Source of the DNA: Gemmatimonadota bacterium
Lineage (GTDB): Bacteria > Gemmatimonadota > Gemmatimonadetes > Palauibacterales > Palauibacteraceae
DNA: 13,994 bases
Assembly: GCA_046758745.1 (NCBI GenBank)
Contig: JBHIAV010000061.1
Coordinates: 1 to 13,994, forward strand
Direction of reading: 5' to 3'
Under the pieces are notes generated by a model, which saw only the letters and a program-made list of their open reading frames with translations, had not been told where the DNA came from and made no database searches. Numbering within the stretch: the stretch's first letter is position 1; every line of letters begins with the position of its first letter. Positions 837 to 13,464 of this stretch are shown here, in pieces. The position numbers and the translations under genes are program-made.

Positions 837-1661
837 ATGCACGAGGATCGACAGACCCCCGAGCTGATCGCCCTCATCCTCCTCTTCCTCGGCATCACGA
901 CCTTCACCGTCGTCGGCTTCGCCACGAAGGAGTGGCTGCCCGTCGCCGCCTCGCGACACGCGGCCGGCGTGGATGGGGTGATCCGATATCTGCTCCTCAC
1001 CACGGGGGCCATCCTCGTGCTCGGGACATTGGCACTCACCGCCTTCCTGTGGCGATACGGCAGGGGGCGGCCGACGCGCTCGCCACGGACGACCCCGAGG
1101 GCGGAGCGCTGGTGGTCGCTCATTCCGGTGCTCGGCATGGCCCTCATCGCCGAAGCGGGCGTGCTCCTCAAGGGCCTCCCGGTGTGGGAGCAGGTGTACG
1201 GCCCGCCGCCCGAGGACGCGCTCGTCGTCGAGGTGACCGGGAAGCAGTTCGAGTGGATCGTCCGCTACCCGGGCCGGGACGGCGCGTTCGGCCGCACGGC
1301 TCCCGCTCTCATCGATGACCGGACCAACCCCGCCGGACTCGACGAGGACGACCCGGCGGGGCGTGACGATGTGGTATTTCGAAAAGCGCTCCACCTACCC
1401 GTCGGGCAAACCGTCCACCTGAGGCTTCGCGCCCGCGACGTGCTGCACAGCTTCACGGTCCCTGCCTTCCGTGTCAAACAGGACGTCGTTCCGGGCATCG
1501 TGACGAGGACCGTGTTCGTCCCGACGCGACCCGGCGAGTACGCGATGGGGTGCGCTGAGCTATGCGGCATGGGTCACTACCGGATGGGCGGCACCGTGTT
1601 CGTGCACTCGCCGGAGGACTTCGAACGGTGGCTCGATCAGCAGACCGGGTGGTTCGAATGA
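837..1661 (+). CDS. coxB: Cytochrome c oxidase subunit II (CuA type, no fused cytochrome c), 274 aa
   Basis: N-terminal TM helices; VEVTGKQFEW aromatic loop; CuA ligands DVLHSF...CAELCGMGHYRM; GGGAG RBS upstream; stop overlaps the next start (ATGA, 1658-1661). Confidence 0.97.
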   Translation: MHEDRQTPELIALILLFLGITTFTVVGFATKEWLPVAASRHAAGVDGVIRYLLLTTGAILVLGTLALTAFLWRYGRGRPTRSPRTTPRAERWWSLIPVLGMALIAEAGVLLKGLPVWEQVYGPPPEDALVVEVTGKQFEWIVRYPGRDGAFGRTAPALIDDRTNPAGLDEDDPAGRDDVVFRKALHLPVGQTVHLRLRARDVLHSFTVPAFRVKQDVVPGIVTRTVFVPTRPGEYAMGCAELCGMGHYRMGGTVFVHSPEDFERWLDQQTGWFE

Positions 1662-3412
1662 GCGCGGCACACGCTCCGCAGGGCTTCTGGAGAAGGTACG
1701 TCTTCAGCACGGACCACAAGACGATCGGGAAGCAGTACCTGCTGACCGGCCTCCTCATGGGAATCTTCGGCGTCGCGTGGTCGATCCTCATCCGCCTGCA
1801 GCTCGCCTGGCCGGACGCCACCTGGCCTGTGCTGGGAAGGCTCCTCCCCGGCCTGTTCGAAAGCGGGGTGCTGCTGCCGGAGCGCTACCTGAGCCTGGTC
1901 ACCATGCACGGGACGGTCATGATCTTCTTCGTGGTCTCCTTCGCGCTGGTGAGCGGGTTCGGCAACTTCATCATCCCGCTCCACGTCGGGGCGCGGGACA
2001 TGGCGTACCCCTTCCTCAACATGCTCTCCTACTGGATCATCGTGCCGGCCTGCCTCCTCATGCTCGGCTCGTTCTTCGTCCCGGACGGGGCGGCGGCGGC
2101 CGGCTGGACCGTCTACCCGCCCCTCTCCGCCCTACCGGAGGCGGTGCCCGGATCGGGGGCCGGACAGACGCTGTGGCTGCTGGCGATGGCGCTGTTCATC
2201 GTCTCCTTCACCATGGGGAGCCTCAACTTCGTCACCACGATCCTCAACCTCCGCACCCGCGGGATGTCGATGTTCCGGATGCCGCTGACCGTGTGGACGC
2301 TGTTCATCGCGTCGATCCTCGGCCTCCTGGCCTTCCCGGCCATCACCGCGGCGGCGATCATGCTGCTGCTGGATCGCCTCGGGGGGACGAGCTTCTTCCT
2401 GCCCGAGGGGCTGGTGCTCGGGGGACGCCTCCTGGAGACCGGGGGCGGGACGCCTCTCCTCTTCCAGCACCTCTTCTGGTTCATGGGGCATCCGGAGGTG
2501 TACGTGCTCGTCCTCCCGGCGGTGGGGATCGCCTTCGACGTGCTGGCGGCCTTCGGGCGGCGGCCGGTGTTCGGGTACCGGACGTCGGTTTGGTCGCTGG
2601 TCGTGATCGCCTTCCTAAGCATGATCGTGTGGGGGCATCACATGTTCACCAGCGGGATGAACCCCTACCTCGGCGAGTACTTCTCGATCGCCACCGTCGC
2701 GATCACCGTGCCGTTCGCCGTGCTGGGGATGAACCTCATCGCGAGCCTGTGGCGCGCGCGGATCCGGCTGACCTCGGCGATGCTCTTCGCCCTCGGCATC
2801 GTGGCCGCCATCGGCATCGGCGGGCTCGGTGGACTGTGGCTCGGGACGGCGACGTCGGACATGTACCTGCACGACTCGTACTTCGTCGTCGGCCACTTCC
2901 ACTTCATGATCGGCACGGTGACGCTCTTCGGCGTGTTCGCCGCCAGCTACTACTGGTTCCCGAAGATGTTCGGGCGGTTCATGAGCGAGAGGCTGGGCAA
3001 GATCCACTTCTGGCTGACCGCCGCGACGGTCTTTCCGGCATTTGTCTCCATGCACTACCTGGGCCTTGCCGGGCACCTGCGGCGCCTGTACGACCCGACG
3101 GCATACGGGTACGCCGAGCCGACCCAGTGGCTGAACGTCTTCATCACGATCGCGCTGCTCGCCGCCATCGCCGGCCAGCTCGTCTACCTGGCGAACTTCT
3201 TCTGGAGCCTGTTCCGCGGCGAGCGGGCGGGGGCCAACCCCTGGGAGGCCGCGTCGCTGGAGTGGACGGCTGCCTCGCCGGCGCCGCATCTGAACTGGGA
3301 GGAGCTGCCTGCGGTGTACCGGGGGCCTTACGAGTACCGGGTGGACGGGCTGCGGGACGGGTACCGCCCGCAGGCGGCGCCGCCGGCCGAGGTTGAGGCG
3401 ACGGTGCGGTGA
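1658..3412 (+). CDS. coxA: Heme-copper oxidase subunit I, A1 type (584 aa), with atypical K-channel
   Basis: STDHKTIG, TMHGT (heme a His), GFGNF and ARDMAYPFLN (D-channel Asn/Asp), GWTVYPPLS, FWFMGHPEVY (A1 Glu, crosslink Tyr), VWGHHMF (CuB), LHDSYFVVGHFH, LRRLY. Start taken at the ATGA overlap with coxB. Confidence 0.97.
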   Translation: MSAAHAPQGFWRRYVFSTDHKTIGKQYLLTGLLMGIFGVAWSILIRLQLAWPDATWPVLGRLLPGLFESGVLLPERYLSLVTMHGTVMIFFVVSFALVSGFGNFIIPLHVGARDMAYPFLNMLSYWIIVPACLLMLGSFFVPDGAAAAGWTVYPPLSALPEAVPGSGAGQTLWLLAMALFIVSFTMGSLNFVTTILNLRTRGMSMFRMPLTVWTLFIASILGLLAFPAITAAAIMLLLDRLGGTSFFLPEGLVLGGRLLETGGGTPLLFQHLFWFMGHPEVYVLVLPAVGIAFDVLAAFGRRPVFGYRTSVWSLVVIAFLSMIVWGHHMFTSGMNPYLGEYFSIATVAITVPFAVLGMNLIASLWRARIRLTSAMLFALGIVAAIGIGGLGGLWLGTATSDMYLHDSYFVVGHFHFMIGTVTLFGVFAASYYWFPKMFGRFMSERLGKIHFWLTAATVFPAFVSMHYLGLAGHLRRLYDPTAYGYAEPTQWLNVFITIALLAAIAGQLVYLANFFWSLFRGERAGANPWEAASLEWTAASPAPHLNWEELPAVYRGPYEYRVDGLRDGYRPQAAPPAEVEATVR

Positions 3413-4053
3413 GCGGCATCGGAGGGGACGGGGAGGCGCTTCCAAGGAGCACGGCCGGCGGGGCTCAGGGGGATGGGATATCGGCCGGAGCGGTAGTAGC
3501 GCTCGGGCACGCCCCGCCGGCCCCCGGACCGTACCCGATCGGGCTGGCGGCGATCCTGGCCACCGTCGGCATGCTCTTCGCCGCCTTCACGGCAGCGCTG
3601 CTGGTGCGCCGGACCGGCGCGGATTGGGTCCCGGTGCGCCTTCCGGGCATCGTGTGGCTGAACACCGCGCTGCTCGTCGCCTCGAGCGCCGCGGTCCAGC
3701 GGGCGCGGGGCGTGATGCGCCGTGGTGCCTCGGGGCCGGCAGTCCGCTGGCTGGCGGCCGGCAGCGTCCTGGGGCTTCTCTTCCTGGCCGGCCAGCTCGT
3801 CGCGTGGCGCATGCTCGCGGCCCGCGGCGTGTTCCTGCCGACCAACCCCCACGCCGCCTTCTTCTACACCCTCTCGGCGGTGCATGGGGCGCACGTGCTC
3901 GGGGGGCTGGGGGCTCTCGGCTGGACCCTGCGCCGGGCGGCCGGAGGCGCGTACACCGCCGCCCGGCACATCGGCCTCTCCCACGCCGCCATCTTCTGGC
4001 ACTTCGTAGGCGGCGTGTGGGTGTACCTTCTGACCCTGCTTTCGACCCTGTAG
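3409..4053 (+). CDS. coxC: Cytochrome c oxidase subunit III, first short copy
   Basis: MLFAAFTAA, WLNTALLVASS, FLAGQLVAW, FFYTLSAVHGAHVLGG and FWHFVGGVWVYL motifs; GTGA overlap with coxA. The true start may lie somewhat downstream. Confidence 0.9.
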   Translation: MSGIGGDGEALPRSTAGGAQGDGISAGAVVALGHAPPAPGPYPIGLAAILATVGMLFAAFTAALLVRRTGADWVPVRLPGIVWLNTALLVASSAAVQRARGVMRRGASGPAVRWLAAGSVLGLLFLAGQLVAWRMLAARGVFLPTNPHAAFFYTLSAVHGAHVLGGLGALGWTLRRAAGGAYTAARHIGLSHAAIFWHFVGGVWVYLLTLLSTL

Positions 4054-4061
4054 GAGGACCG

Positions 4062-4673
4062 ATGGCGAGTGTGGACGTACCGGCGGCCGAGGTTCACTGG
4101 CAGGGCGGGGTGTCGCCCTTCGGGGTGTCGTGGCAGAAGCTGATGATGTGGCTGTTCCTCATCACCGATGCCCTGCTCTTCGCCGGGTTCCTCGCCGCCT
4201 ACGGCTTCGAGCGGCTGGCGAGCGCCGCGTGGCCGGAGCAGGGCGATGTCTTTCCGATGCTCAAGATCGGGACCATGACGTTCGTCCTCATCACCTCGAG
4301 CGCCACCATGGCCACGGCGGTGGGGGCGGCGCACCGCGGGGACCTCGCGCGGGCCGCCCGGTTCGTGCTCCTCACCGCGCTGGGCGGGCTCACCTTTCTC
4401 CTCTTCCAGGCGAGCGAGTGGACGAGCGTGATCCGGGAAGGGGCGCGTCTGACCCACAACCCGTGGGGCGTCCCGGCCTTCTCGGCCTTCTTCTTCACGA
4501 TCACCGGCTTCCACGGCACTCACGTCCTGATCGGCGTGATCATCCTGTCGGTGGTGGTGGCGCGCCTGCGGGCCGGCCGCACGTCGGGGTCGGGGGTGGA
4601 GCTGGCGGGCCTCTACTGGCACTTCGTGGACCTGGTATGGGTCTTCATCTTCACCTGCTTCTATCTGATCTGA
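4062..4673 (+). CDS. coxC: Cytochrome c oxidase subunit III, second short copy (203 aa)
   Basis: AGGAGG RBS at 4052-4057; WQGGVSPFGVSWQKLMMWLFLITDALLF, TFVLITSSATM, FFFTITGFHGTHV, GLYWHFVDLVWVFIFTCFYL. Confidence 0.95.
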   Translation: MASVDVPAAEVHWQGGVSPFGVSWQKLMMWLFLITDALLFAGFLAAYGFERLASAAWPEQGDVFPMLKIGTMTFVLITSSATMATAVGAAHRGDLARAARFVLLTALGGLTFLLFQASEWTSVIREGARLTHNPWGVPAFSAFFFTITGFHGTHVLIGVIILSVVVARLRAGRTSGSGVELAGLYWHFVDLVWVFIFTCFYLI

Positions 4674-4711
4674 AGAAAGCGTTCACCCCGATTCCAGGGA
4701 GAGTGAGTGTG

Positions 4712-5005
4712 ATGGAAGGAGCCACGTCGTACCGCAGCTACTGGTTCGTGTGGGTCGTCCTCCTGATCCTGACCCTTTTCATGATCGCCGTGGAAGCGTC
4801 CGGACTGGCGCGGGCCGCGGCGGTGCTCATCCTGGCCGGGGCGATGCTGACGAAGGCGACGCTGATCGCCGGCTGGTTCATGCACCTGCGATACGAGCGG
4901 ATGGCGCTGGTGGCGTGTGTGGCGGTGGGAATCCTGGCGACGGCGGCTTTTCTCTTCTTCCTCATCGCCACGGACGGCGTTTCGATGGCTCGGCTCGCCG
5001 CCTGA
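4712..5005 (+). CDS. Cytochrome c oxidase subunit IV family protein (97 aa)
   Basis: Three TM segments with YWFVWVVLLILT...KATLIAGWFMHLRYE (prokaryotic subunit IV FMHL motif); last gene of the cox cluster; purine-rich RBS upstream. Confidence 0.88.
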   Translation: MEGATSYRSYWFVWVVLLILTLFMIAVEASGLARAAAVLILAGAMLTKATLIAGWFMHLRYERMALVACVAVGILATAAFLFFLIATDGVSMARLAA

Positions 5006-5401: not shown

Positions 5402-7738
5402 TCACTCTGCCGCGGTCGCCGGGCCGATCCGCACCGCGCAGAACTTGAACTCCGGGATCTTCCCGAACGGATCGAGCTCGTCGATGGTGAGGACGTTGGC
5501 GCCGGCCTCCCGGAAGTGGAAGGGGATGAAGAGGGAGCCCGGGCTCACCTGCGTGGAGCTGCGGGCACGCAGGATGATGCTTCCGCGGCGCGACGCCACC
5601 TCGACCATGTCACCGTCGGCCAGGCCGTGGGCCGAGAGATCATCCGGGTGGATCTCCACGCTGGCCTCCGGCTCGATCGCGTCCAGGATGCGGGCCCGCC
5701 GGGTCATCGTCCCGGTGTGCCAGTGCTCGAGGAGGCGGCCGGTGTTGAGGACGAGCGGATACTCCTCATCGGGAAGCTCCTTGGCCGGGGCGAAGACGGC
5801 CGGAACGAACTTCCCGCGGCCGCTCGGTGTGGGGAAGCCGTCCCCGAACAGGACCTGGATCCCATCCCCGCTCTCCGGCTCGGGGCAGGGCCACAGCTTG
5901 CCCGTGAGGCCGAGGTTCCGATGGGTGAGGCCCGCGTAGGACGGCGCGAGGGAAGTGAACTCGTCGAACACGTCGGAAGGAGAGTCGTAGCGCATCGGAT
6001 AACCCATGCGGGTCGAGATCTCGCAGATGATCTCCCAGTCCTGCCTCGCCTGTCCCGGCGGGTCCAGCGCCCTCCGCCCCACCTGAACCCGCCGGTCCGT
6101 GTTCGTGTACGTGCCGGTCTTCTCGAAGAAGCTCGCGGCGGGGAGGATGACGTCGGCGAACTCGGCCGTCTCGGTGAGGAAGATGTCCTGCACGACGAGG
6201 AACTCGAGGCTCGACAGGGCCTTCCGCACCTTGTTCGTGTTGGGGTCGGAGAGGAAGGGGTTCTCCCCCATCATGTACATTCCGCGGATCTCGCCGCTGA
6301 GCGCGCCGGACATGATCTCGACCACGGTGAGACCGGCTTTCGGGTCGAGGGACGCGCCCCACGCCTTCTCGAACTTCGCGCGCACGTCCGGACTCTCCAC
6401 GCTCTGGTAGTCGGGGTACACCATCGGGATGAGCCCGGCGTCGGAGGCGCCCTGCACGTTGTTCTGCCCGCGGAGCGGGTGGAGGCCCGTCCCCGGCCGT
6501 CCGACGTTTCCGGTGAGCAGCATGAGGGAGATGAGGCCGCGCGCGTTGTCGGTGCCGTGCGTGTGCTGCGAGATCCCCATCCCCCAGAAGACGATCGCGG
6601 CCTCCGCGCGGCCGAACAGGCGTGCCGCCTCGACGATCCTCTCCTCCTCCACCCCGCAGAGGCGCGACGCCAGCTCGGGCGGGTAGTCCGCCACCACCTT
6701 CCGGAGCTCCTCGAACCCCTCGGTTCGCGTCTCGATGAAGCGGCGGTCTACCAGGTTCTCCTCGATCAGCACCTTCATCCACGCGTTGTACAGAGCCACG
6801 TCGGTGCCCGGGTTGATCTGGAGGAAGTGCGCCGCGTGATCTGCCATGTCGTGGCGGCGCGTGTCCACCACGACGAGCTTCGTGCGGCCGGACTTCGCCG
6901 CCTGCTTCATGAAGGTGGCGGCCACCGGGTGGTTGGCCGTCGTGTTCGAGCCTGCGATGAGCGCCACGTCGGCGTTCTTCACATCCGCGAAGACGTTCGT
7001 CACGGCGCCGGAGCCGATCGTCTCGAGCAGGGCGGCCACGGAGGAGGCGTGGCAGAGTCGGGTGCAGTGGTCCACGTTGTTCGTGCCGAAGACCGCCCGC
7101 ACCAGCTTCTGGAAGAGGTAGGCCTCCTCGTTGCTGCACTTCGCGCTCCCGAAGCCGGCGAGCGCGCCGGGGCCGTGCCGATCGCGGATCTCATTCAGGC
7201 GGGACGCCGTGAGGTCGAGCGCCTCCTCCCATGTCGCCTCTCGGAAGTGGGGGAGGACGTCGGCATAGTCCACCAGCCCGCCAGGCTTCCTTCCGCTCCC
7301 GGGACCCGTCGAGCCCCGTACCTCCGGGGAGAGAGGACCCTTGGGGTAGGCGGACTCGCGACGGATGAGAGCGGCGGTGAGGCGCTGCGGGTGCGTGGCG
7401 TACTCGAAGCCGAACCTCCCCTTCACGCACAGCCGCTCCCGGTTGACCGGACTGTCCCGGCCGTCGGCGTACGCGATTCGCCCCGATGCCTCGTCCACGA
7501 AGTAGCGGATCGCGCAGCCGACGCCGCAGTACGGGCACACCGAGTCGACGCGTCCAAGCTGGCCTTTGGGCGTGGAGAGGCGGAGCTGTCGCAGCAGCTC
7601 GGAGCGGTGCTCACGGATCGAGGCGCGCAGCTCCGGGGTCAGCGCGCCGTTCGGGTCGCGCAGGGCCAGGCTGTCGCCGCTCGGTCGGAGCTCGACGCCT
7701 CGCTGGCGAAGCTCCGCCAGCAGGGTCGTCGTGGTCAT
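5402..7738 (-). CDS. fdhA: Formate dehydrogenase catalytic Mo/W-bis-PGD subunit (Cys ligand, 778 aa) with N-terminal TubC_N-like domain
   Basis: [4Fe-4S] motif SVCPYCGVGC...LCVKGRFG, GSAKCSNEEAY, active-site NNVDHCTRLCH (Cys, not Sec), PLRGQNNVQGA, LNTGRLLEHWHTG, C-terminal PEFKFCAV. GGGAGGTG RBS and ATGA overlap at 7735-7738. Confidence 0.96.
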   Translation of the reverse strand: MTTTTLLAELRQRGVELRPSGDSLALRDPNGALTPELRASIREHRSELLRQLRLSTPKGQLGRVDSVCPYCGVGCAIRYFVDEASGRIAYADGRDSPVNRERLCVKGRFGFEYATHPQRLTAALIRRESAYPKGPLSPEVRGSTGPGSGRKPGGLVDYADVLPHFREATWEEALDLTASRLNEIRDRHGPGALAGFGSAKCSNEEAYLFQKLVRAVFGTNNVDHCTRLCHASSVAALLETIGSGAVTNVFADVKNADVALIAGSNTTANHPVAATFMKQAAKSGRTKLVVVDTRRHDMADHAAHFLQINPGTDVALYNAWMKVLIEENLVDRRFIETRTEGFEELRKVVADYPPELASRLCGVEEERIVEAARLFGRAEAAIVFWGMGISQHTHGTDNARGLISLMLLTGNVGRPGTGLHPLRGQNNVQGASDAGLIPMVYPDYQSVESPDVRAKFEKAWGASLDPKAGLTVVEIMSGALSGEIRGMYMMGENPFLSDPNTNKVRKALSSLEFLVVQDIFLTETAEFADVILPAASFFEKTGTYTNTDRRVQVGRRALDPPGQARQDWEIICEISTRMGYPMRYDSPSDVFDEFTSLAPSYAGLTHRNLGLTGKLWPCPEPESGDGIQVLFGDGFPTPSGRGKFVPAVFAPAKELPDEEYPLVLNTGRLLEHWHTGTMTRRARILDAIEPEASVEIHPDDLSAHGLADGDMVEVASRRGSIILRARSSTQVSPGSLFIPFHFREAGANVLTIDELDPFGKIPEFKFCAVRIGPATAAE
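7580..7738 (-). other. TubC_N / beta-hairpin docking domain-like segment (aa 1-53 of the FDH catalytic subunit)
   Basis: MTTTTLLAELRQRGVELRPSGDSLALRDPNGALTPELRASIREHRSELLRQLR fits the remembered pattern LLxELxxxGIxLxxxGxxLxxxAPxGALTxELxxxIxxHKxELLxxL of TubC/EpoB N-terminal docking domains. Confidence 0.8.
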
Positions 7739-8583
7739 ATCACCTCCCACCCGTCGCGCATCGCGCCGGGGCCGGCGGGCGCGGCCGGCTCGAAGAGGTC
7801 CTGCAGGGTGAGCGCCCCGGTGGGACACACCTTCTCACACTCCCCGCACGCGACGCACGTGCTGCGGCCCATCGGGTCGTCGAGGTCGAAGCCGATCCGC
7901 GTGGCGTACCCTTTTCCGGTGCGCCCGATCACCTGGTTCACCTGGATGTCGTCGCACGCCCGGATGCACCGGTCGCAGAGGATGCATGCCTGATGGTCCA
8001 CCCGGATGACCGGCGAGGAGGGGTCGATCGGCCGCCCGCCGCCCGCCGGGATCCCTCCGACCGGCCGGGTGCGCCCGCCGAGCGCGAGCTCGGCGACCGG
8101 CGGTCCGCCCACACCCCCGGGCGCCCTCTCGGGGCGCCTGCCGTCACGGTCCCCGCGGGCCGGCACGCTACCGGGGTGGGCGTCCCCGCCCGCGCGGTCG
8201 TGCGCGATCCCGTAGCGACGCGCCAGCTCGAGAAGCTCGTCCGCACCCGTCTTGAGCCTCGCCTCTCCATCGACCGGATAGTCGGAGAGAAGGAGCTCGA
8301 CGAGCCCGCGCCGGCACGCCTCGATCTTCTCGCTGGTCGTCTCTACGGACATGCCGGCCTCGGCCTTCCGGATGCAGGCGGCGGTGAGCCGCTTCTCGCC
8401 GACATCGACGAGGCAGAGCCGACATACCCCGACGGGGGCCAGTCGCGGATCGTGGCACAGCACGGGGATGTCGATCCCGAGGGCCCGCGCCGCATCCCAG
8501 ATCGTGGAGCGGGCGGACACGTCGACCTCCCGCCCGTCCACCGTCAGGCGGATGGTCTCCCTCGCCGTCGGGCTATCGCTCAT
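7735..8583 (-). CDS. FDH iron-sulfur subunit ([2Fe-2S] plus 2x[4Fe-4S]); detached N-terminal part of an FDH1/FdsA-type alpha subunit, 282 aa
   Basis: IPVLCH...GVCRLC...AAC [2Fe-2S] motif (C43, C54, C57, C70); CILCDRCIRAC and STCVACGECEKVCPTGAL. The NuoG N5-type HxxxCxxC motif is absent, as I recall for Methylorubrum FDH1 alpha. ATGA overlaps at both ends. Confidence 0.93.
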   Translation of the reverse strand: MSDSPTARETIRLTVDGREVDVSARSTIWDAARALGIDIPVLCHDPRLAPVGVCRLCLVDVGEKRLTAACIRKAEAGMSVETTSEKIEACRRGLVELLLSDYPVDGEARLKTGADELLELARRYGIAHDRAGGDAHPGSVPARGDRDGRRPERAPGGVGGPPVAELALGGRTRPVGGIPAGGGRPIDPSSPVIRVDHQACILCDRCIRACDDIQVNQVIGRTGKGYATRIGFDLDDPMGRSTCVACGECEKVCPTGALTLQDLFEPAAPAGPGAMRDGWEVI

Positions 8584-10256
8584 GGCGTACCTTGCGGCGC
8601 GCCTTCCCTCGTCCGCGTCGCCAGCGTGGTGCCGGGGTCCGGACCCTCACGGCGGGGAACCTCCTCGGGCCAGTGCTCCGCTGCGGAGAGGAGCGGGTTG
8701 AGCGCCACGTAGCCCAGCCCGCAGATCGACGTCTCGGAGAGGAGGAGGTCGAGCTTCTCGATCGTCTCCCAGTCCAGCGGCTCGCCGGACTCCATCGTCT
8801 GCGTCAGCATGGCGACGGCCTTCGCGGTTCCGTCGCGACACGGGACGCACTTTCCGCACGACTCGTTTCGGAAGAAGCGAACCACGTTGGCGGCGAGCGG
8901 GAGCATGGGCGTGCCCTCGGCGACCACCACGAGGGCGCCCGATCCCATCATGCTCCCCGCGTCGGCCAGCGACCCGAAGTCGATCGCCACGTCGGCCCGG
9001 TCGGCCGGGAGGAAGCGGGAGGAGGCGCCGCCGGGCGCGAACGCCTTCAGCGTCCGTCCACCGCTCACCCCACCCGCCACATCGATGAGCTCCGCGACCG
9101 GCGTGCCCATCGGGATCTCGTATACCCCCGGTCGCTCGACGTGGCCCGAGACGGCCATGAACTTGAGGCCCGCGTGGCCGTTCTTCCCCTGCGCCATCCA
9201 CCACGATGCGCCGCGCAGCGAGATGGCAGGCACGAAGGCGAAGGTCTCGACGTTGTTCATGAGGGTGGGCCGGCCCCACAGCCCGTGCTGGCCCGGGAAG
9301 GGAGGCTTGTTGCGGGGCTCGCCCCGGCGGTCCTCGAGTGCCTCGAGGAGGGCCGTCTCCTCACCCAGGATGTAGCCGCCCGGCGAGACGAAGATGTCGA
9401 GCTCGAAGTCGAAGCCGGAGCCCAGGATGTCCCGGCCGATGAGGCCGGCCTCCTCGACCCGGGCGAGCTCGGCCTCCAGAGCCTCGCGCGCGGACCGGTA
9501 CTCGTGCCGCACATAGATCGTCCCCCGGGAAGAGCCCACGGCGAAGCCGCCCAGAAGCATGCCCTCGATCACCAGGTGAGGGAGCTCCTCGAGGATGACC
9601 CGATCCTTGAAGGTGCCGGGCTCGCTCTCGTCTGCGTTGCAGATCACGTACTTCGGGCTCGCCGCCTCCGCCCGCACCAGCTCCCACTTGCGTCCCGTCG
9701 GGAAGCCGGCACCCCCCATCCCGCGTAGCCCGCTCTCCGTGAGAGCCGCCAGGAGGGCCTCGAGGGCTTCGGTGCGATCGGGGGTCTCGAGGAGCGCCCG
9801 CAGCGCCCCGTATCGCTCGCCGGGGCCGGCGTACGGGTCGCACCTCCACCGGCGGGTGGGCGGAGCCGCGCGTTCGAATCGGCCGCCACGCACCCGGGCG
9901 GCGAGGACGGACGGGTCGTCGGCCCTCGCCGGGGTTCCGTTCACGCGCACCGCCGGGGCGAGCTCGCAGCAACCGAGGCACGACGCCTCCTCCAGGCGGA
10001 CATCGGGTGAAGACCGGAGCGCAGAGCGGATCCGGGCGGCGAGCCCCTCTCCGCCGTTGAGGAAGCAGCTCATGTCGCGGCACACCGAGACGGTGATCGG
10101 CGCCGGAGGCTCGGTGAGGAAGTGAGGGTAGAAGGAGACGAGCTCCTGGAGTCGGTAGAGGGGAGCTCCCAGGCGCGCCGCAAGCTCTTGCAGGGAGTCG
10201 CTGTCCAGGAATCCCTGCTCGGCCTGCCGCGCCTCCAGCTCGTGGATTAGCCTCAT
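8580..10256 (-). CDS. NAD+-dependent FDH beta/diaphorase subunit, NuoE-NuoF fusion (558 aa)
   Basis: NuoE-like LVSFYPHF, CRDMSC...CLGCC [2Fe-2S]; NuoF-like SGLRGMGGAGFPTGRKW, CNADESEPGTFKDR, YILGEETAL, NNVET; [4Fe-4S] motif ESCGKCVPCRDG...SICGLG. Confidence 0.95.
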   Translation of the reverse strand: MRLIHELEARQAEQGFLDSDSLQELAARLGAPLYRLQELVSFYPHFLTEPPAPITVSVCRDMSCFLNGGEGLAARIRSALRSSPDVRLEEASCLGCCELAPAVRVNGTPARADDPSVLAARVRGGRFERAAPPTRRWRCDPYAGPGERYGALRALLETPDRTEALEALLAALTESGLRGMGGAGFPTGRKWELVRAEAASPKYVICNADESEPGTFKDRVILEELPHLVIEGMLLGGFAVGSSRGTIYVRHEYRSAREALEAELARVEEAGLIGRDILGSGFDFELDIFVSPGGYILGEETALLEALEDRRGEPRNKPPFPGQHGLWGRPTLMNNVETFAFVPAISLRGASWWMAQGKNGHAGLKFMAVSGHVERPGVYEIPMGTPVAELIDVAGGVSGGRTLKAFAPGGASSRFLPADRADVAIDFGSLADAGSMMGSGALVVVAEGTPMLPLAANVVRFFRNESCGKCVPCRDGTAKAVAMLTQTMESGEPLDWETIEKLDLLLSETSICGLGYVALNPLLSAAEHWPEEVPRREGPDPGTTLATRTREGAPQGTP

Positions 10257-10305
10257 CGCGCCCCGCTCGTCGGACGGATGCCCGGCTCATTGCTGATGCC
10301 CGTGC

Positions 10306-10334
10306 ATCTTAGAAGACGGGGGACGCCTTCACAA
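10306..10334 (-). promoter_or_regulatory. Putative sigma70 promoter of the fdh operon
   Basis: Minus strand TTGTGA-N17-TAAGAT, about 50 nt upstream of ATG 10256 and immediately after a terminator-like hairpin. Confidence 0.6.
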
Positions 10335-10357
10335 CGTCGGCTGTGGAGCTCCTTCGG

Positions 10358-10410
10358 AAAAGCAGGAAGGGCCGCCACCCCGGCGAGCCGACGGCTCGTC
10401 CGGGCGGTCC
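10358..10410 (-). terminator. Putative intrinsic terminator after the small ORF
   Basis: Extended GC hairpin centred on CGAGCC-N3-GGCTCG (10384-10398) with flanking CCGG/CCGG pairing, followed on the minus strand by TTCCTGCTTTT. Confidence 0.5.
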
Positions 10411-10435
10411 TATGCCTCCCGCACCGGGATCCTGA

Positions 10436-10588
10436 TCAGAACCGGCGCAAGACCTCGCGCCACCCCGCGAGCCCGTATCTGAACGGAGTGGGGAAGCTCT
10501 CCCCCTCCGCAGCGGATCGCTGCCGACGTGCCGGCCTCAGGGCCGCAAGGATCGCGAGCGTCGCGATGACCGTCAGCGCGTCCAGCAT
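10436..10588 (-). CDS. Putative 50-aa small protein with hydrophobic N-terminus (not in ORF track)
   Basis: Translated by hand: MLDALTVIATLAILAALRPARRQRSAAEGESFPTPFRYGLAGWREVLRRF. Strong GGAGGAGGT Shine-Dalgarno upstream and a terminator-like hairpin downstream. Confidence 0.55.
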   Translation of the reverse strand: MLDALTVIATLAILAALRPARRQRSAAEGESFPTPFRYGLAGWREVLRRF

Positions 10589-10661
10589 CTCACCACCACC
10601 TCCTCCGTTCCTCCCCGACTCCGTGCGGGGGCAGCCACGCCTCTACTCTTCTCTCAACCTC

Positions 10662-10690
10662 TTAACGGGTTCCGGGAGCCCCCGGTTTCC
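10662..10690 (-). promoter_or_regulatory. Possible ECF-sigma promoter for the small ORF
   Basis: Minus strand GGAAAC-N17-CGTTAA resembles the ECF AAC...CGT consensus, about 75 nt upstream of ATG 10588. Confidence 0.35.
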
Positions 10691-10810
10691 ACCCTCAACG
10701 CGTTCAAGCCGCCTTGTCGTAATGGCGCCTGCACTTGACAGGTCGGCGGACGCACGACCGACCGATCCGTCCCTTATGCAGGCATGGGCGGGCCGCTCGG
10801 CCGGGGACCC

Positions 10811-11725
10811 TCACGGCTCGACGCGAAGACCGAGACCGAGGAAGTCCTCGTCCTCCGCACGCAGCTGGCCGATCGGCGAGGGGCCGAAGTGACCCCGAGC
10901 CTCGAGGCGAAGCGCGGTCCCGCCGATCCGGAAGGCGACTCCCGCCGTCCCGGTTCCGGCCACGCGCTCCGCCTCCGTGGTGACCTGGAAATCGGTCGCC
11001 GCGAAGGGCCATGCGAAGCCGCGCTCCGCCCCGAAGCCGGGATTCCACTCGAGGCCGAAGCGGCCGGCCGCCCGCTCCACCCCGGAATTCGCGTGGAAGT
11101 TGTAGTCGGCACCGCCGTACAGCCGGAGCGAGGGGCCGAACCGAAGGGCCAGGAGCCCCTCGAAGCCGTCCCGGGTCACCTGCTGCTGCGGCCTGGGGAA
11201 CCGGGCGATGAACTCGTCCCCGATGTGGGAGCTGACGTGCAGGATCGTCGCCCGTCCCTCCCATCTGCCGCCACGCAGGGAGAGAGGGACGCCCACGCGG
11301 AAGTCGGTGTTGATCAGGTCCTTCTCCGAGGTCTCCATGGAGAAGCGCGAGAACATTCCCACCTCGAAGCCGATCACCACGGCGGCTCGGCCCGGGGCCT
11401 CGCCCTGAAGGCGCACCACGGGGATGCGGTGACCGATCGCCACCTCCGCCTCGACGCTCCTGCCCTCGAAGTCCGAGTCCGGCCGATCGGCGAGCAGGAT
11501 GGAGCCGCGGAACCCGACCTCACGGGGGGCGGCGAGAACGGGGGCGAAGGCGGCGGACTGCGGGAACCACCGCACCCCGGCGGAGGCCGCGGGTTCCTCC
11601 GATTCCGAGTGGCCCGCCCCCCTGGGCGCGTGCGCTTCCTGCTCGGCCTCGGCGCTGGACGCACGGATCAGGAAGGCGAGGGCGACGATCGACGCGCGCG
11701 CCGCGGTTCGTCGGGGGCAGGTCAT
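10811..11725 (-). CDS. DUF1207-family exported / probable outer-membrane protein (304 aa)
   Basis: Signal-peptide-like N-terminus (RRTAARASIVALAFLIRASSAEA); family-like motifs FAPVLAAPRE, DLINTDFRVG, HVSSHIGDEF; alternating amphipathic beta strands ending FLGLGLRVEP. Confidence 0.8.
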   Translation of the reverse strand: MTCPRRTAARASIVALAFLIRASSAEAEQEAHAPRGAGHSESEEPAASAGVRWFPQSAAFAPVLAAPREVGFRGSILLADRPDSDFEGRSVEAEVAIGHRIPVVRLQGEAPGRAAVVIGFEVGMFSRFSMETSEKDLINTDFRVGVPLSLRGGRWEGRATILHVSSHIGDEFIARFPRPQQQVTRDGFEGLLALRFGPSLRLYGGADYNFHANSGVERAAGRFGLEWNPGFGAERGFAWPFAATDFQVTTEAERVAGTGTAGVAFRIGGTALRLEARGHFGPSPIGQLRAEDEDFLGLGLRVEP

Positions 11726-11820
11726 AGGCAGGTTCCCGTTGGGCGTGCCACTTGTGCGGGCGCGAGAATGTGGGGAGTGTACCGCGCGTCCACAACGCCT
11801 CGCGGAGTCATCGCGTGCGC

Positions 11821-13464
11821 ATGACTGCAAACCACGGATCCCGATCGACGAGCCCGGCCCGGGCCGGCTCCCTCGCGGAATGGTTGCTCCGACAGGGGCT
11901 GCTCCGTGGCCCGTTCCTCTTCGTCGACTACTGGGCGAGCGTGCTCCGTTTCGCCGGAGCCGTTCCGGAGGAACAGATACGGGTCGGGCTGGTGGATGAG
12001 ACGCTCTTCCGTCTCGGGCTCGACCGACCGGACCTCGAGGTGCCGCGGCTGCGCTACTACCTCCTCCTCTTCCTCGTCGGCCCGCTGCTCCTGCCCTTTC
12101 GTTTCTTTCGACGGCTCGGCCGCTACCGGATCCGCTTCCGTCGCGCGGTCGGGGACGAGGTGCTGAGCGCCCTTCGACGCTATCGGCTCTCTCTCGTGCC
12201 GTCGGGACGCGGGCGGGTGGATGTGAGCAAGGACGGGATCGAGCTGGCCGATGACGTCCTCGACCCCTACCTCATCGCCGGCTTTGCCAGCCCCTTCTTC
12301 GCGGCGTACAAGCTCCCGCTGGCCTCGCTGTCGGGGATCCTCCTCGTGGCGGCGCTCGTCCTCCTTCTCGGCTCGACCGGATCGCTCGGCCCCGTCGGCG
12401 ATCACCTGCTGCTCGCGGGCTTCCCTCTCCTGGTGATCGCGCTGTACGCGGTATATCGGGAGTGGGTCACCGCGGTCCTCGGAGCCACGCCGGTCCTCCT
12501 CGGGGCGGTGCTCGTCGATGTCCTCCGCTTCGACGTCTCGCAGGATTGGGTCCCCTTCCTCGGAGCGCTCGGCGGCCTCTTCGCCGTCTATCTGCTGATC
12601 GATTGGTTCTTCATGCCACGGCCGGTGCCGCCGGTGCTCTTCCTGTACTGTGCAGACGGGCCCGGACGGCCGTACCGGCGACAGGGCGACGCTCCCTACT
12701 GGCTGACGGGGAGGGTGTACTGGGTGTGGCGGTACCTCATGCTGACCCCGGCCGAGCTGAATAAGTTCTGGGAGCGCGACTGGGAGCGCGTGGAGCTGTG
12801 GATCCGGGCTGATGGCCCGACGGCGGGCGCCCTCGAGTGGGTGGTGACCGATGCCCACTATCGCGAGCTCTGGATTCCGTACGAGAAGCTCGGCTTCGAG
12901 CCTTCGTTGGCTCGCAACCGCATCGCGGCCGTGCGGGCCGCGCAGGATGCGAGCGCGGGGACGTGGCTGTTGGAGGTCGACGCGAACCAGCTCTTCCACT
13001 CGCCGTTCTTCCGCGCGGTCTCCTTCCTCCCGGAGAGGGGACGGATCCCCGTGCGCCGCGTGGGACACATGGTGAAGGCCCTGTGGAAGCAGGCCCGTGA
13101 CGATCGAGTGGACGACTACCTGGAGATCCTCGAGCGGCTGCAGGTGAGGGAAGGGGTCGACATCCTGGAGGACGTGCCGGAGCTGATCGCGCACCTCACG
13201 GCGCGTCACATGCTCTCTCAACCGTGGCGGTACTGGCGTTACCCGCTGGGCGCGAACCGCCGGCTCGAGAGCCGGCTCTACGAGGGGCCGGGAACACGGG
13301 AGCGGGCGCCAGCCGCCGCGCCGGAGCTCCAGATCAAGGCGATGGTCGGCGTCGGACCGCCGGGCCGGGAGGCCGTCGATGACGGGATGGGTGGTGCCGG
13401 CCGTGCGCAGGGGGCGGAGCTAGCCGAGCCGACGGCGAAGCGGCCGGGGCAGGAGGAGCGATGA
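11821..13464 (+). CDS. Hypothetical multi-pass membrane protein (547 aa) with C-terminal Trp-rich DWE-motif domain
   Basis: Long ORF with typical high-GC3 codon use; about 5 hydrophobic segments in the N-terminal half; soluble domain with YWVWRY...ERDWERVELWI...WVVTDAHY; stop overlaps the lrp start (ATGA). Start codon uncertain. Confidence 0.85.
   Translation: MTANHGSRSTSPARAGSLAEWLLRQGLLRGPFLFVDYWASVLRFAGAVPEEQIRVGLVDETLFRLGLDRPDLEVPRLRYYLLLFLVGPLLLPFRFFRRLGRYRIRFRRAVGDEVLSALRRYRLSLVPSGRGRVDVSKDGIELADDVLDPYLIAGFASPFFAAYKLPLASLSGILLVAALVLLLGSTGSLGPVGDHLLLAGFPLLVIALYAVYREWVTAVLGATPVLLGAVLVDVLRFDVSQDWVPFLGALGGLFAVYLLIDWFFMPRPVPPVLFLYCADGPGRPYRRQGDAPYWLTGRVYWVWRYLMLTPAELNKFWERDWERVELWIRADGPTAGALEWVVTDAHYRELWIPYEKLGFEPSLARNRIAAVRAAQDASAGTWLLEVDANQLFHSPFFRAVSFLPERGRIPVRRVGHMVKALWKQARDDRVDDYLEILERLQVREGVDILEDVPELIAHLTARHMLSQPWRYWRYPLGANRRLESRLYEGPGTRERAPAAAPELQIKAMVGVGPPGREAVDDGMGGAGRAQGAELAEPTAKRPGQEER

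Follow-up and report, generated by a model that had tools for sequence, protein, structure and literature searches.

The K-pathway lysine (K362 in Rhodobacter sphaeroides) is a textbook essential residue of the mitochondrial-type oxidases. Natural lysine-less enzymes are known from sequence catalogues, and we know of none with a mechanism. The present analysis concerns one such enzyme, subunit I (CoxI, protein P0005) of a heme-copper oxidase encoded in a cox operon on a 13,994-nucleotide stretch of DNA from a Gemmatimonadota bacterium (GCA_046758745.1, contig JBHIAV010000061.1, here C61; the whole stretch is called the window). The source assembly had a size of 3.08 Mb, a G+C content of 68% and a completeness of 87%. 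At the level of sequence, the loss of the lysine was shown to be coupled to gains of hydroxyl residues on helices VII and VIII of subunit I and of a carboxylate in the middle of helix 2 of subunit II. In our estimation the chances are about even that the product is a working, accessory oxidase of the aa3 type in which the K-pathway was rebuilt with E106 of subunit II as the substitute for the lysine. Positions in subunit I are given in R. sphaeroides numbering unless stated otherwise.

Many lysine-less lineages of family-A COX1 are tabulated by Degli Esposti et al. 2021 (PMC8239418, supplementary Table_3), with examples that include the rus-operon oxidases of Acidithiobacillus, Acidimicrobium, the CyoCAB subtype, and the A1 enzymes of Elusimicrobia, Calescamantes HR19, Methylacidiphilum and Halobacteriovorax. 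The same source distinguishes 'KC-channel', 'modified' and 'hybrid' classes by helix VII positions aligned to the channel of the cbb3 oxidases, and its KC-channel class combines a non-ionisable residue at the K354 position with protonatable or hydroxyl-bearing helix VII residues aligning with S240, S244, H247 and Y255 of V. cholerae CcoN. With the KC positions mapped from the rows of that table, the window CoxI showed G, S, S and S at G312, M316, A319 and G327, and the canonical paralogue on contig C5 of the same genome showed G, M, A and G. By its aligned residues, the window CoxI carries the signature of the KC-channel class, which is a sequence category. It resembles the tabulated lysine-less A1 enzymes in the non-ionisable residue at K354/K362, the retained Tyr and PEVY motif, and the Ser/Thr at the helix VII KC positions, and the HR19 row (F, T and F at S291, K354 and T351) is close to the F, L and F of the window. 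It differs from the entries of the table in that the Gemmatimonadetes and Acidobacteria rows all carry Lys, with the K-channel of the 'Gemmatimonadetes' subclade scored as 'generally yes', and in that the clade of the window is nested in the two-COX3 operon group, whose K-channel is scored 'yes'. Because those rows have Lys, the window clade is not singled out in the table, which follows the entry Glu of subunit II (E78) and not a mid-helix carboxylate. Gene order and tree position matched an 'a-III (2 COX3)'-like group, a label taken from Table S1 of the same paper.

A representative search gave 150 best matches, of which the 129 with a complete signature, nearest to the query, were kept; the lysine was absent in 44 of these 129 family-A representatives. 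The near invariance of K362 in family A, as stated in the initial annotation, was contradicted by this count and by the many lysine-less entries tabulated in PMC8239418. Lysine-less enzymes are already catalogued, and their recurrent coupling to a subunit II carboxylate was not found in print: a literature search that had most subscription journals outside its reach returned neither an account of lysine-less oxidases with a mid-membrane carboxylate in subunit II nor a description of this lysine-less clade in particular.

The alternative K-channel of the ba3 oxidases is built from Thr, Ser and Tyr and starts at a residue of subunit II. The likeness to the B-family (ba3-type) lies in the lysine-less path below the active-site Tyr (PMC3084760), as is proposed for the window enzyme; the B-family enzymes are without the D-channel and E286, whereas the window CoxI belongs to family A and keeps both. 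The closest solved structures were the canonical aa3 oxidases of R. sphaeroides (1M56) and P. denitrificans (1AR1/1QLE), which were the best matches in the PDB with E-values of 1.4e-113 and 6.6e-108; the first of these was to R. sphaeroides subunit I (1m56_A, phmmer against PDB chains). The translation of 1562-3412, which includes both helix strings HPEVYVLVLPAVGIAFDV and ATVAITVPFAVLGMNL, aligned to 1m56_A without gaps over query residues 294-512, and the replacement of S299 by Phe, T359 by Phe and K362 by Leu, as first read from the sequence, was confirmed codon by codon. The positions that matter to the argument in both subunits are the following:

2534..2539 (+), helix VI of subunit I: S299 replaced by Phe (2534-2536) and H300 by Asp, from the 1m56_A alignment.
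2585..2620 (+), helix VII of subunit I: S310, S313 and S321 of the window at R. sphaeroides positions M316, A319 and G327, from the comparison of clade and sister.
2705-2707 (+), helix VIII of subunit I: A356 replaced by Thr, from the 1m56_A alignment.
2714-2716 (+), helix VIII of subunit I: T359 replaced by Phe, from the 1m56_A alignment.
2723-2725 (+), helix VIII of subunit I: K362 replaced by Leu, from the 1m56_A alignment.
2735-2737 (+), helix VIII of subunit I (segment 2705..2737): W366 replaced by Leu, with Asn at the S365 position, from the 1m56_A alignment.
1104..1106 (+), subunit II: E90, which aligns with R. sphaeroides E101(II), the K-pathway entry Glu, from the HMMER alignment to 1m56_B.
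1140..1154 (+), subunit II: five-residue insertion ALIAE in transmembrane (TM) helix 2, ending in the invariant Glu E106 (codon 1152-1154), from the CoxII alignment.

A homologue search of a collection of 5.8 billion proteins gave 8000 scored candidates, 7994 of them at E <= 1e-50, and the best 120 of the 8000 (63-100% identical to the window CoxI) are referred to as the 120 homologues or clade members. The nearest were labelled Gemmatimonadota by their sources, and the source names among the 120 were Gemmatimonadota, Acidobacteria/Terriglobia and Planctomycetes. None had Lys at the K362 position (L 73, I 36, V 10, F 1). The S299 position was occupied by F (108), L (11) or C (1), with Ser in the sister clade and in the paralogues of the window genome, and the T359 position by F (92) or S (28). 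The replacements described earlier as bulky are not all so in every clade member, as the Ser at the T359 position shows. The A356 position held T in 118 and S in 2, the M316 position S in 70 and T in 48, the A319 position S in 81 and A in 38, the G327 position S in 113, and the W366 position L in 110 and M in 10. In the lysine-bearing sister clade the positions A356, 359, K362, S365 and W366 read A, S, K, N and W, with Ala at A356 and Met at M316 in 5/5 sequences and Ser already present at G327.

Comparison of the clade with its sister gave the following branch-specific changes in subunit I: S299->F/L, M316->S/T, A319->S, A356->T/S, S359->F, K362->hydrophobic and W366->L/M. The change of G327 to Ser and the D-channel changes S197F, S201F and I202T are older than the loss of the lysine, because the sister clade has them. 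Among the family-A representatives, the strongest correlate of lysine loss was a hydroxyl residue (S/T) at A356 (32/44 lysine-less vs 1/85 lysine-bearing), and Ser at G327 was found in 34/44 vs 17/85. Some candidate features of lysine loss were rejected. The Asp at the H300 position was dropped as a new group since the canonical paralogues carry Glu there, and the S197/S201 to Phe changes since the lysine-bearing sister has both. An 11-residue insertion before helix VI (nt 2408-2440) is unrelated to the loss because it is also found in the lysine-bearing L037, L043, L042, L015 and L046.

For the phylogeny, 80 named loci were taken from a one-genome-per-species collection and the channel signature was read in each; helix VIII of 10 lysine-less and 2 lysine-bearing loci was read straight from the sequence and not from mafft --add --keeplength. 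The first tree (FastTree) had 97 rows, with the partial or frameshifted L018, L044, L070 and L075 left out, and the second (IQ-TREE, LG+C20 mixture model) had 47 rows. Both trees placed CoxI inside family A, among A1 COX1 sequences, and grouped the lysine-less sequences of the window in one clade with a support of 100, which spans Gemmatimonadota, Planctomycetota and Acidobacteriota. Its sister was the lysine-bearing Acidobacteriota clade L037-L043 (support 98 and 96), and clade and sister together were nested among lysine-bearing oxidases in both trees. The tree check called for by the initial annotation thus gave one clade with a shared loss, in which the F/F/L pattern itself varies (F/L/C, F/S and L/I/V/F). 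With the root at the distant fused paralogue, the lysine was lost once, on the stem of the clade; the minimum number of changes in lysine state was 6 for the tree with 97 rows and 3 for that with 47.

The window CoxII matched R. sphaeroides subunit II (1m56_B) at 2.3e-26 and kept the CuA ligands H, C, E (backbone), C, H and M, with H204, C239, C243, H247 and M250 invariant in 32 sequences. In solved A-type oxidases helix II of subunit II bears the K-pathway's point of entry (PMC6778200). The entry Glu, whose retention had been suggested earlier, was located in the window as E90. All loci having CoxII were aligned, and the 30 lysine-less rows comprised the window, 27 main-clade loci and 2 Kryptoniota loci. 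The entry Glu was kept in 28 of these 30. The insertion with a core acidic residue was found in 30/30 lysine-less loci and in 0/45 lysine-bearing loci, and no acidic residue was seen in the helix 2 core of any of the 45 lysine-bearing rows. Its motif in the main clade was [A/S]-E-[A/G/V/I/L]-G, and the spacing from the entry Glu to the periplasmic Trp was 27-28 residues in lysine-less and 22 in lysine-bearing sequences. E106 lies 16 residues above E90 and 11 before W117. CoxII was modelled with AlphaFold2 from an alignment of 32 sequences; the model had a mean predicted local distance difference test score (pLDDT) of 87.5 and predicted helices at 6-30, 40-74 and 87-121 followed by the cupredoxin domain. 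In this model helix 87-121 is continuous through the insertion, with a pLDDT of 84-90 over residues 91-110, and E106 lies near its middle.

Carboxylates in helix 2 were also seen in other lysine-less lineages. The Kryptoniota loci L034 and L035 formed a separate branch, sister to the lysine-bearing L036/P0125 (support 99-100), and in their CoxII Glu preceded the periplasmic Trp by 12 and 8 residues. The P0127 lineage, sampled as 80 metagenome loci, is unrelated and has a different gene order, with coxII downstream; its lysine position was I/V/L in 78/80 (one row had Lys and one was a fragment without the region), and its CoxII had an acidic residue 10-13 residues before the PxW anchor in 41/43 rows. 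In a further Gemmatimonadota lineage outside the trees (L174 and L180), K362 was replaced by Leu and CoxII had an Asp 11 residues before the Trp, and the TM2 segment of the lysine-bearing L176 and L177, two of the five oxidases L175-L179 from the same phylum sample, had no such acidic residue. We tentatively propose, with slightly less than even confidence, that the titratable group of the K-pathway moved repeatedly between subunits, from the Lys of helix VIII to a carboxylate of subunit II helix 2, in the window clade, the Kryptoniota, the P0127 lineage and this second Gemmatimonadota lineage. As a separate observation, the oxidases of this lineage, which is in the same class (L174:2726-5149 and L180:2749-5220), had VPIAEL in helix VIII (Glu at 361), HHQF in place of HHMF, and a CoxII without the entry Glu.

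The active site was complete in the window. Equivalents of the six His ligands, Y288, E286, D132, N121, N139, N207, S142, W172, H411/D412 and R481/R482 were present in CoxI. The six His (H102, H284, H333, H334, H419 and H421 equivalents) and the Tyr-I with the PEVY Glu (GHPEVY, with E280 and Y282) were found in 120/120 clade members; across the six His, Y288, E286, D132, N121, N139, N207, S142 and W172, each was kept in 117-120/120; and R481 and R482 were kept in 118/120 and 105/120. The intactness of the His ligands, cross-link Tyr, E286, D132/N121/N139 equivalents and RR pair claimed earlier was therefore upheld by the 1m56_A alignment and the clade counts. For the D-channel as a whole the claim held for the D132/N121/N139 part and not for the upper part (nt 2195-2209, CoxI residues 180-184), where Phe replaces S197 and S201 and Thr replaces I202 in 119-120/120 clade members and 5/5 lysine-bearing sister sequences. 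By these residues the D-channel of the whole group, clade and sister, is non-canonical. Against the family-A (A1 type) residue lists, which follow the Pereira 2001 / Sousa 2011 definitions given in PMC3084760, 7 of 8 D-channel residues were present (P. denitrificans D124, N199, N113, N131, Y35, S134, S193 and E278), with the S193 equivalent Phe in 120/120, and from the K-channel list (K354, T351, S291 and Y280) the Tyr alone was kept, the others being Leu, Phe and Phe.

The window enzyme shares with the canonical aa3 oxidases the 12-helix core, the six His, the cross-link Tyr, E286, the D-channel entry, the Mg-site H411/D412, the RR pair, a CuA subunit II with the entry Glu, and a subunit III. 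It differs in the hydrophobic residues at S299, T359, K362 and W366, the hydroxyls at M316, A319, G327 and A356, the Phe at S197/S201, the five-residue insertion with a Glu in helix 2 of subunit II, an extra N-terminal helix of subunit II, two subunit III genes and a subunit IV gene.

In the reading that we prefer, the enzyme would be a proton-translocating aa3-type cytochrome c (or cupredoxin) oxidase that stands beside a canonical lysine-bearing one in the genome. The protons of the reductive half would enter near E90(II) and would be relayed by waters, the new helix VII hydroxyls and the buried carboxylate of E106(II), which would take over the mid-membrane titratable role normally held by K362. 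They would next pass T350 and S321 and then reach the cross-linked Tyr (Y282), while the D-channel (E286 and the D132/N121/N139 equivalents) would continue to serve pumping and the oxidative phase. The pathway is spoken of as rebuilt and not closed because the M316/A356 hydroxyls and the subunit II Glu were gained on the branch on which the lysine was lost. 'Closure' is probably the wrong word.

The initial annotation had favoured closure of the channel and a D-channel-only enzyme, which is no longer the best reading in view of the hydroxyls gained at M316 and A356 and the Glu insertion in subunit II. A K-channel that is truly closed, with all protons taken in through the D-channel or a slow reductive phase tolerated, would fit the hydrophobic Phe, Phe and Leu at S299, T359 and K362 and the invariant D-channel entry and E286. 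It is quite improbable, as the loss is accompanied by polar gains (M316, A356 and E106 of subunit II), the entry Glu E90(II), pointless in a closed channel, is kept in 28/30 loci, and the T359 position is Ser in 28/120. Extra load on the D-channel is also less likely because Phe at S197 and S201 narrows its upper part. The K362M mutation in R. sphaeroides nearly abolishes turnover, which likewise counts against a closed channel.

Alternatively, protons could follow a path of hydroxyls and waters in B-family or 'KC' style, and the subunit II Glu could have another role, such as packing of the lengthened helix, periplasmic proton exit or a subunit contact. The signature Y-F-L-F-N-D / G-S-S-S is KC-channel-like by the scheme of PMC8239418, the Ser/Thr at M316, A319 and G327 and the Thr at A356 are conserved, and B-type enzymes function with a Lys-less alternative K-channel (PMC3084760). 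Changes on the periplasmic side that are new in the clade, Glu at R. sphaeroides position 346 in 118/120 and Tyr at 343, also agree with this alternative. We nevertheless regard it as rather unlikely, since it leaves unexplained the subunit II carboxylate that recurs in separate lysine-less lineages and is found in 0/45 lysine-bearing loci, and since helix VII has a gap of 8 residues without polar side chains between S313 and S321.

Several points weigh against a rebuilt pathway that runs through E106. The residue could instead be located closer to the periplasmic third of the membrane, or be turned towards lipid or a different subunit. In most members the central part of the old path remains hydrophobic, with Phe at the T359 position in 92/120 and Leu, Ile, Val or Phe at the K362 position; the entry Glu is missing in two clade members (Ala in L005 and Gln in L010); Ser at G327 is older than the loss of the lysine, and A319 became Ser in just 81/120. 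The lysine-less L181 (2652-5119), with K362 replaced by Phe and W366 kept, has a CoxII without a clear mid-TM2 carboxylate. In the main clade the link between Lys loss and Glu gain is a single evolutionary event, so the 30-vs-0 count does not represent 30 independent trials, and the independent replicates number about three. The CoxII of L181 was also without the entry Glu, and this locus is a possible exception to the coupling of lysine loss and carboxylate.

If the proposed repeated move between subunits is real, an A-type oxidase needs a mid-membrane titratable site of either charge sign and not lysine itself, the opposite charge would alter how the reductive phase depends on pH and membrane potential, and the change could be an accessory-oxidase adaptation to particular oxygen or pH regimes. 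If E106 works as proposed, it would show how proton delivery to the O2-reducing site can be re-engineered across a subunit interface, and it would offer annotation pipelines a marker for an enzyme type to which NCBI now gives the name 'cbb3-type'. The clade is a natural experiment, with a lysine-bearing sister that has the same operon and a short list of substitutions on the loss branch, and subunit II E106 with T350 and S/T310 is a specific, testable replacement candidate.

The operon that encodes the enzyme was complete by Pfam in the window, as had been stated earlier, and consisted of five genes:

837..1661 (+), coxII: 274 aa, CuA subunit in which a cytochrome c domain is absent; Pfam COX2, 6e-16.
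1658..3412 (+), coxI: 584 aa, A1-type heme-copper oxidase subunit I; Pfam COX1, 5.6e-132.
3409..4053 (+), coxIII-a: first of the two subunit III genes; Pfam COX3, 3.8e-12.
4062..4673 (+), coxIII-b: second subunit III gene; Pfam COX3, 2.2e-17, with a GGAGGA motif before the ATG at 4062.
4712..5005 (+), coxIV: prokaryotic subunit IV family; Pfam COX4_pro, 4.7e-07, with a probable start at ATG 4712.

The coxI reading frame extends over 1562-3412, and its likely start is the ATG at 1658, which overlaps the coxII stop. CoxI scored 441 bits against Pfam COX1 (cut-off 34.8). The order coxII-coxI-coxIII-coxIII-coxIV was common to the lysine-less clade and the lysine-bearing sister clade; the position of coxIII-a was kept in related operons, as was the downstream position of coxIV, and coxIII-b had 59-81% identity across the listed lysine-less clade loci with a match. 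Window coxI had zero stops and zero frameshifts. Its ratio of nonsynonymous to synonymous substitution rates (dN/dS) was 0.05-0.17 in pairwise comparisons with five Gemmatimonadota orthologues, and 0.11-0.17 in the least saturated pairs (dS 0.8-1.2).

Judged from these sequences, the lysine-channel changes are selected and not decay, because the trait is clade-wide, dN/dS is 0.05-0.17 and the catalytic residues are kept; the earlier view that they were selected was borne out, and the substitutions are not private to the window genome. The enzyme is taken to be functional as well as selected because the active-site residues, the CuA ligands and the five-gene operon are conserved and dN/dS is low. 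A decaying or non-functional paralogue has a negligible probability: with two further A-type oxidases and a B-type oxidase in the genome this copy could be redundant, and this explanation is contradicted by the dN/dS values, the lack of stops and frameshifts and the catalytic residues that are invariant across the 120 homologues.

The genome had 4 PF00115 matches overall. The other COX1 genes were a fused I+III A-type with Lys on C31, an A-type paralogue on C5 (51% identical, with the canonical S, S/T and K) and a B-type oxidase on C15. From the phylum, 151 genomes were sampled evenly, with the unpublished G057 and G097 counted in the denominator only; an orthologue with at least 71% identity was found in 7 of the 151 (G000, G060, G086, G039, G043, G139 and, as a fragment, G044), and 6 of these 7 also had a paralogue of about 50% identity. 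From this occurrence and the co-resident paralogues, the enzyme is considered a patchily distributed accessory oxidase. The DNA of 837-5005 was present in four DNA runs from one study, labelled hydrothermal vent metagenome, one of which may be the source, and the run search listed no RNA sequencing runs that carry it.

No conserved neighbours beyond the five cox genes were found in Pfam scans of the flanking ORFs (open reading frames) at 12 related loci. The nar/nos, FNR-type, Rrf2, radical-SAM, FeoB and 2-hydroxyacyl-CoA dehydratase neighbours were each seen in one to three loci, for which reason no function was drawn from them. Genes typical of low-oxygen metabolism were found at L005 (narI and narK-like genes, nosZ/nosD), next to L006 and L091 (Crp/FNR-type, Rrf2-type and radical-SAM genes) and next to L090 and L092 (FeoB and 2-hydroxyacyl-CoA dehydratase genes).

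These neighbours bear on a main substrate of nitric oxide (NO) or peroxide in place of respiratory O2 reduction, a role offered in the initial annotation for which no supporting evidence was found and which is weakened. In its favour may be counted the L005 operon, flanked by narI/narK-like genes and nosZ/nosD, the Crp/FNR-type, Rrf2-type, radical-SAM or FeoB neighbours of other relatives, and the lack of a norB-type gene among the 4 PF00115 matches of the 87%-complete genome. Such a role is very improbable, given that the three CuB His, the cross-link Tyr, E286 and CuA are invariant, that the non-cox neighbours are unconserved across the 12 loci, and that in L016 ctaA/ctaB, for heme A synthesis, follow directly downstream. 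In the new NO reductase families described in a survey, active-site residues are reportedly altered. The hallmarks of NO reductases, namely the motifs H-X-Arom-X-E and H-H-X-Arom-Arom-X17-E without Tyr-I and without CuA (PMC3084760), were not found in CoxI/CoxII, where Tyr-I and CuA are present and helix VI has HPEVY and not the NO reductase motif.

Around the operon of L005, a Gemmatimonadota relative, one side (L005:387-6097) contained narI, two major facilitator superfamily (NarK-like) genes and an alginate-export-type porin, and the other (L005:10751-15080) contained nosZ and nosD. In the window genome, the B-type oxidase (G000:C15:32290-33642 (-)) lies about 5 kb from nosZ (G000:C15:38820-39035 (-)), and the NirK/NirS family searches gave one below-cut-off match (86.9 vs 296.3 bits) and otherwise weak partial matches. 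Upstream of the lysine-less operon of L025, a 671-aa ORF (L025:203-2218) had a weak COX1 match (4.6e-08, below the cut-off) and may, from this match, be a very divergent oxidase-like protein.

On the electron-donor side, where R. sphaeroides subunit II has its electron-entry Trp (W143), the window CoxII had a Phe (HSF, nt 1446-1454) that is nearly invariant across the 32 relatives. The extra N-terminal helix of CoxII (predicted residues 6-30) is encoded at nt 852-926. Azurin/plastocyanin-type and cytochrome c genes were seen near the operons of some relatives.

Elsewhere in the window, 5402-7828 (-) encodes a molybdopterin oxidoreductase (Fe4S4, Molybdopterin and Molydop_binding domains) with an odd N-terminal match to the TubC_N docking domain (2.9e-12), and 8580-10256 (-) encodes a fused NuoE-like/NuoF-like protein (2Fe-2S thioredoxin-like, Complex1_51K, SLBB and NADH_4Fe-4S). 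By their domains the two proteins together look like an NAD-linked module of the formate-dehydrogenase type. The region 10278-13464 had long overlapping ORFs on both strands (10784-11824 (+), 10811-11830 (-), 11752-13464 (+) and 11722-13221 (-)), for which no Pfam match was obtained at E up to 0.01. In the phylum survey, a single in-frame TGA or TAG was seen inside the COX1 matches G080:C1:633214-634881, G071:C1:1866079-1867746 and G123:C1:45225-46892, which come from closed or nearly closed genomes of one family.

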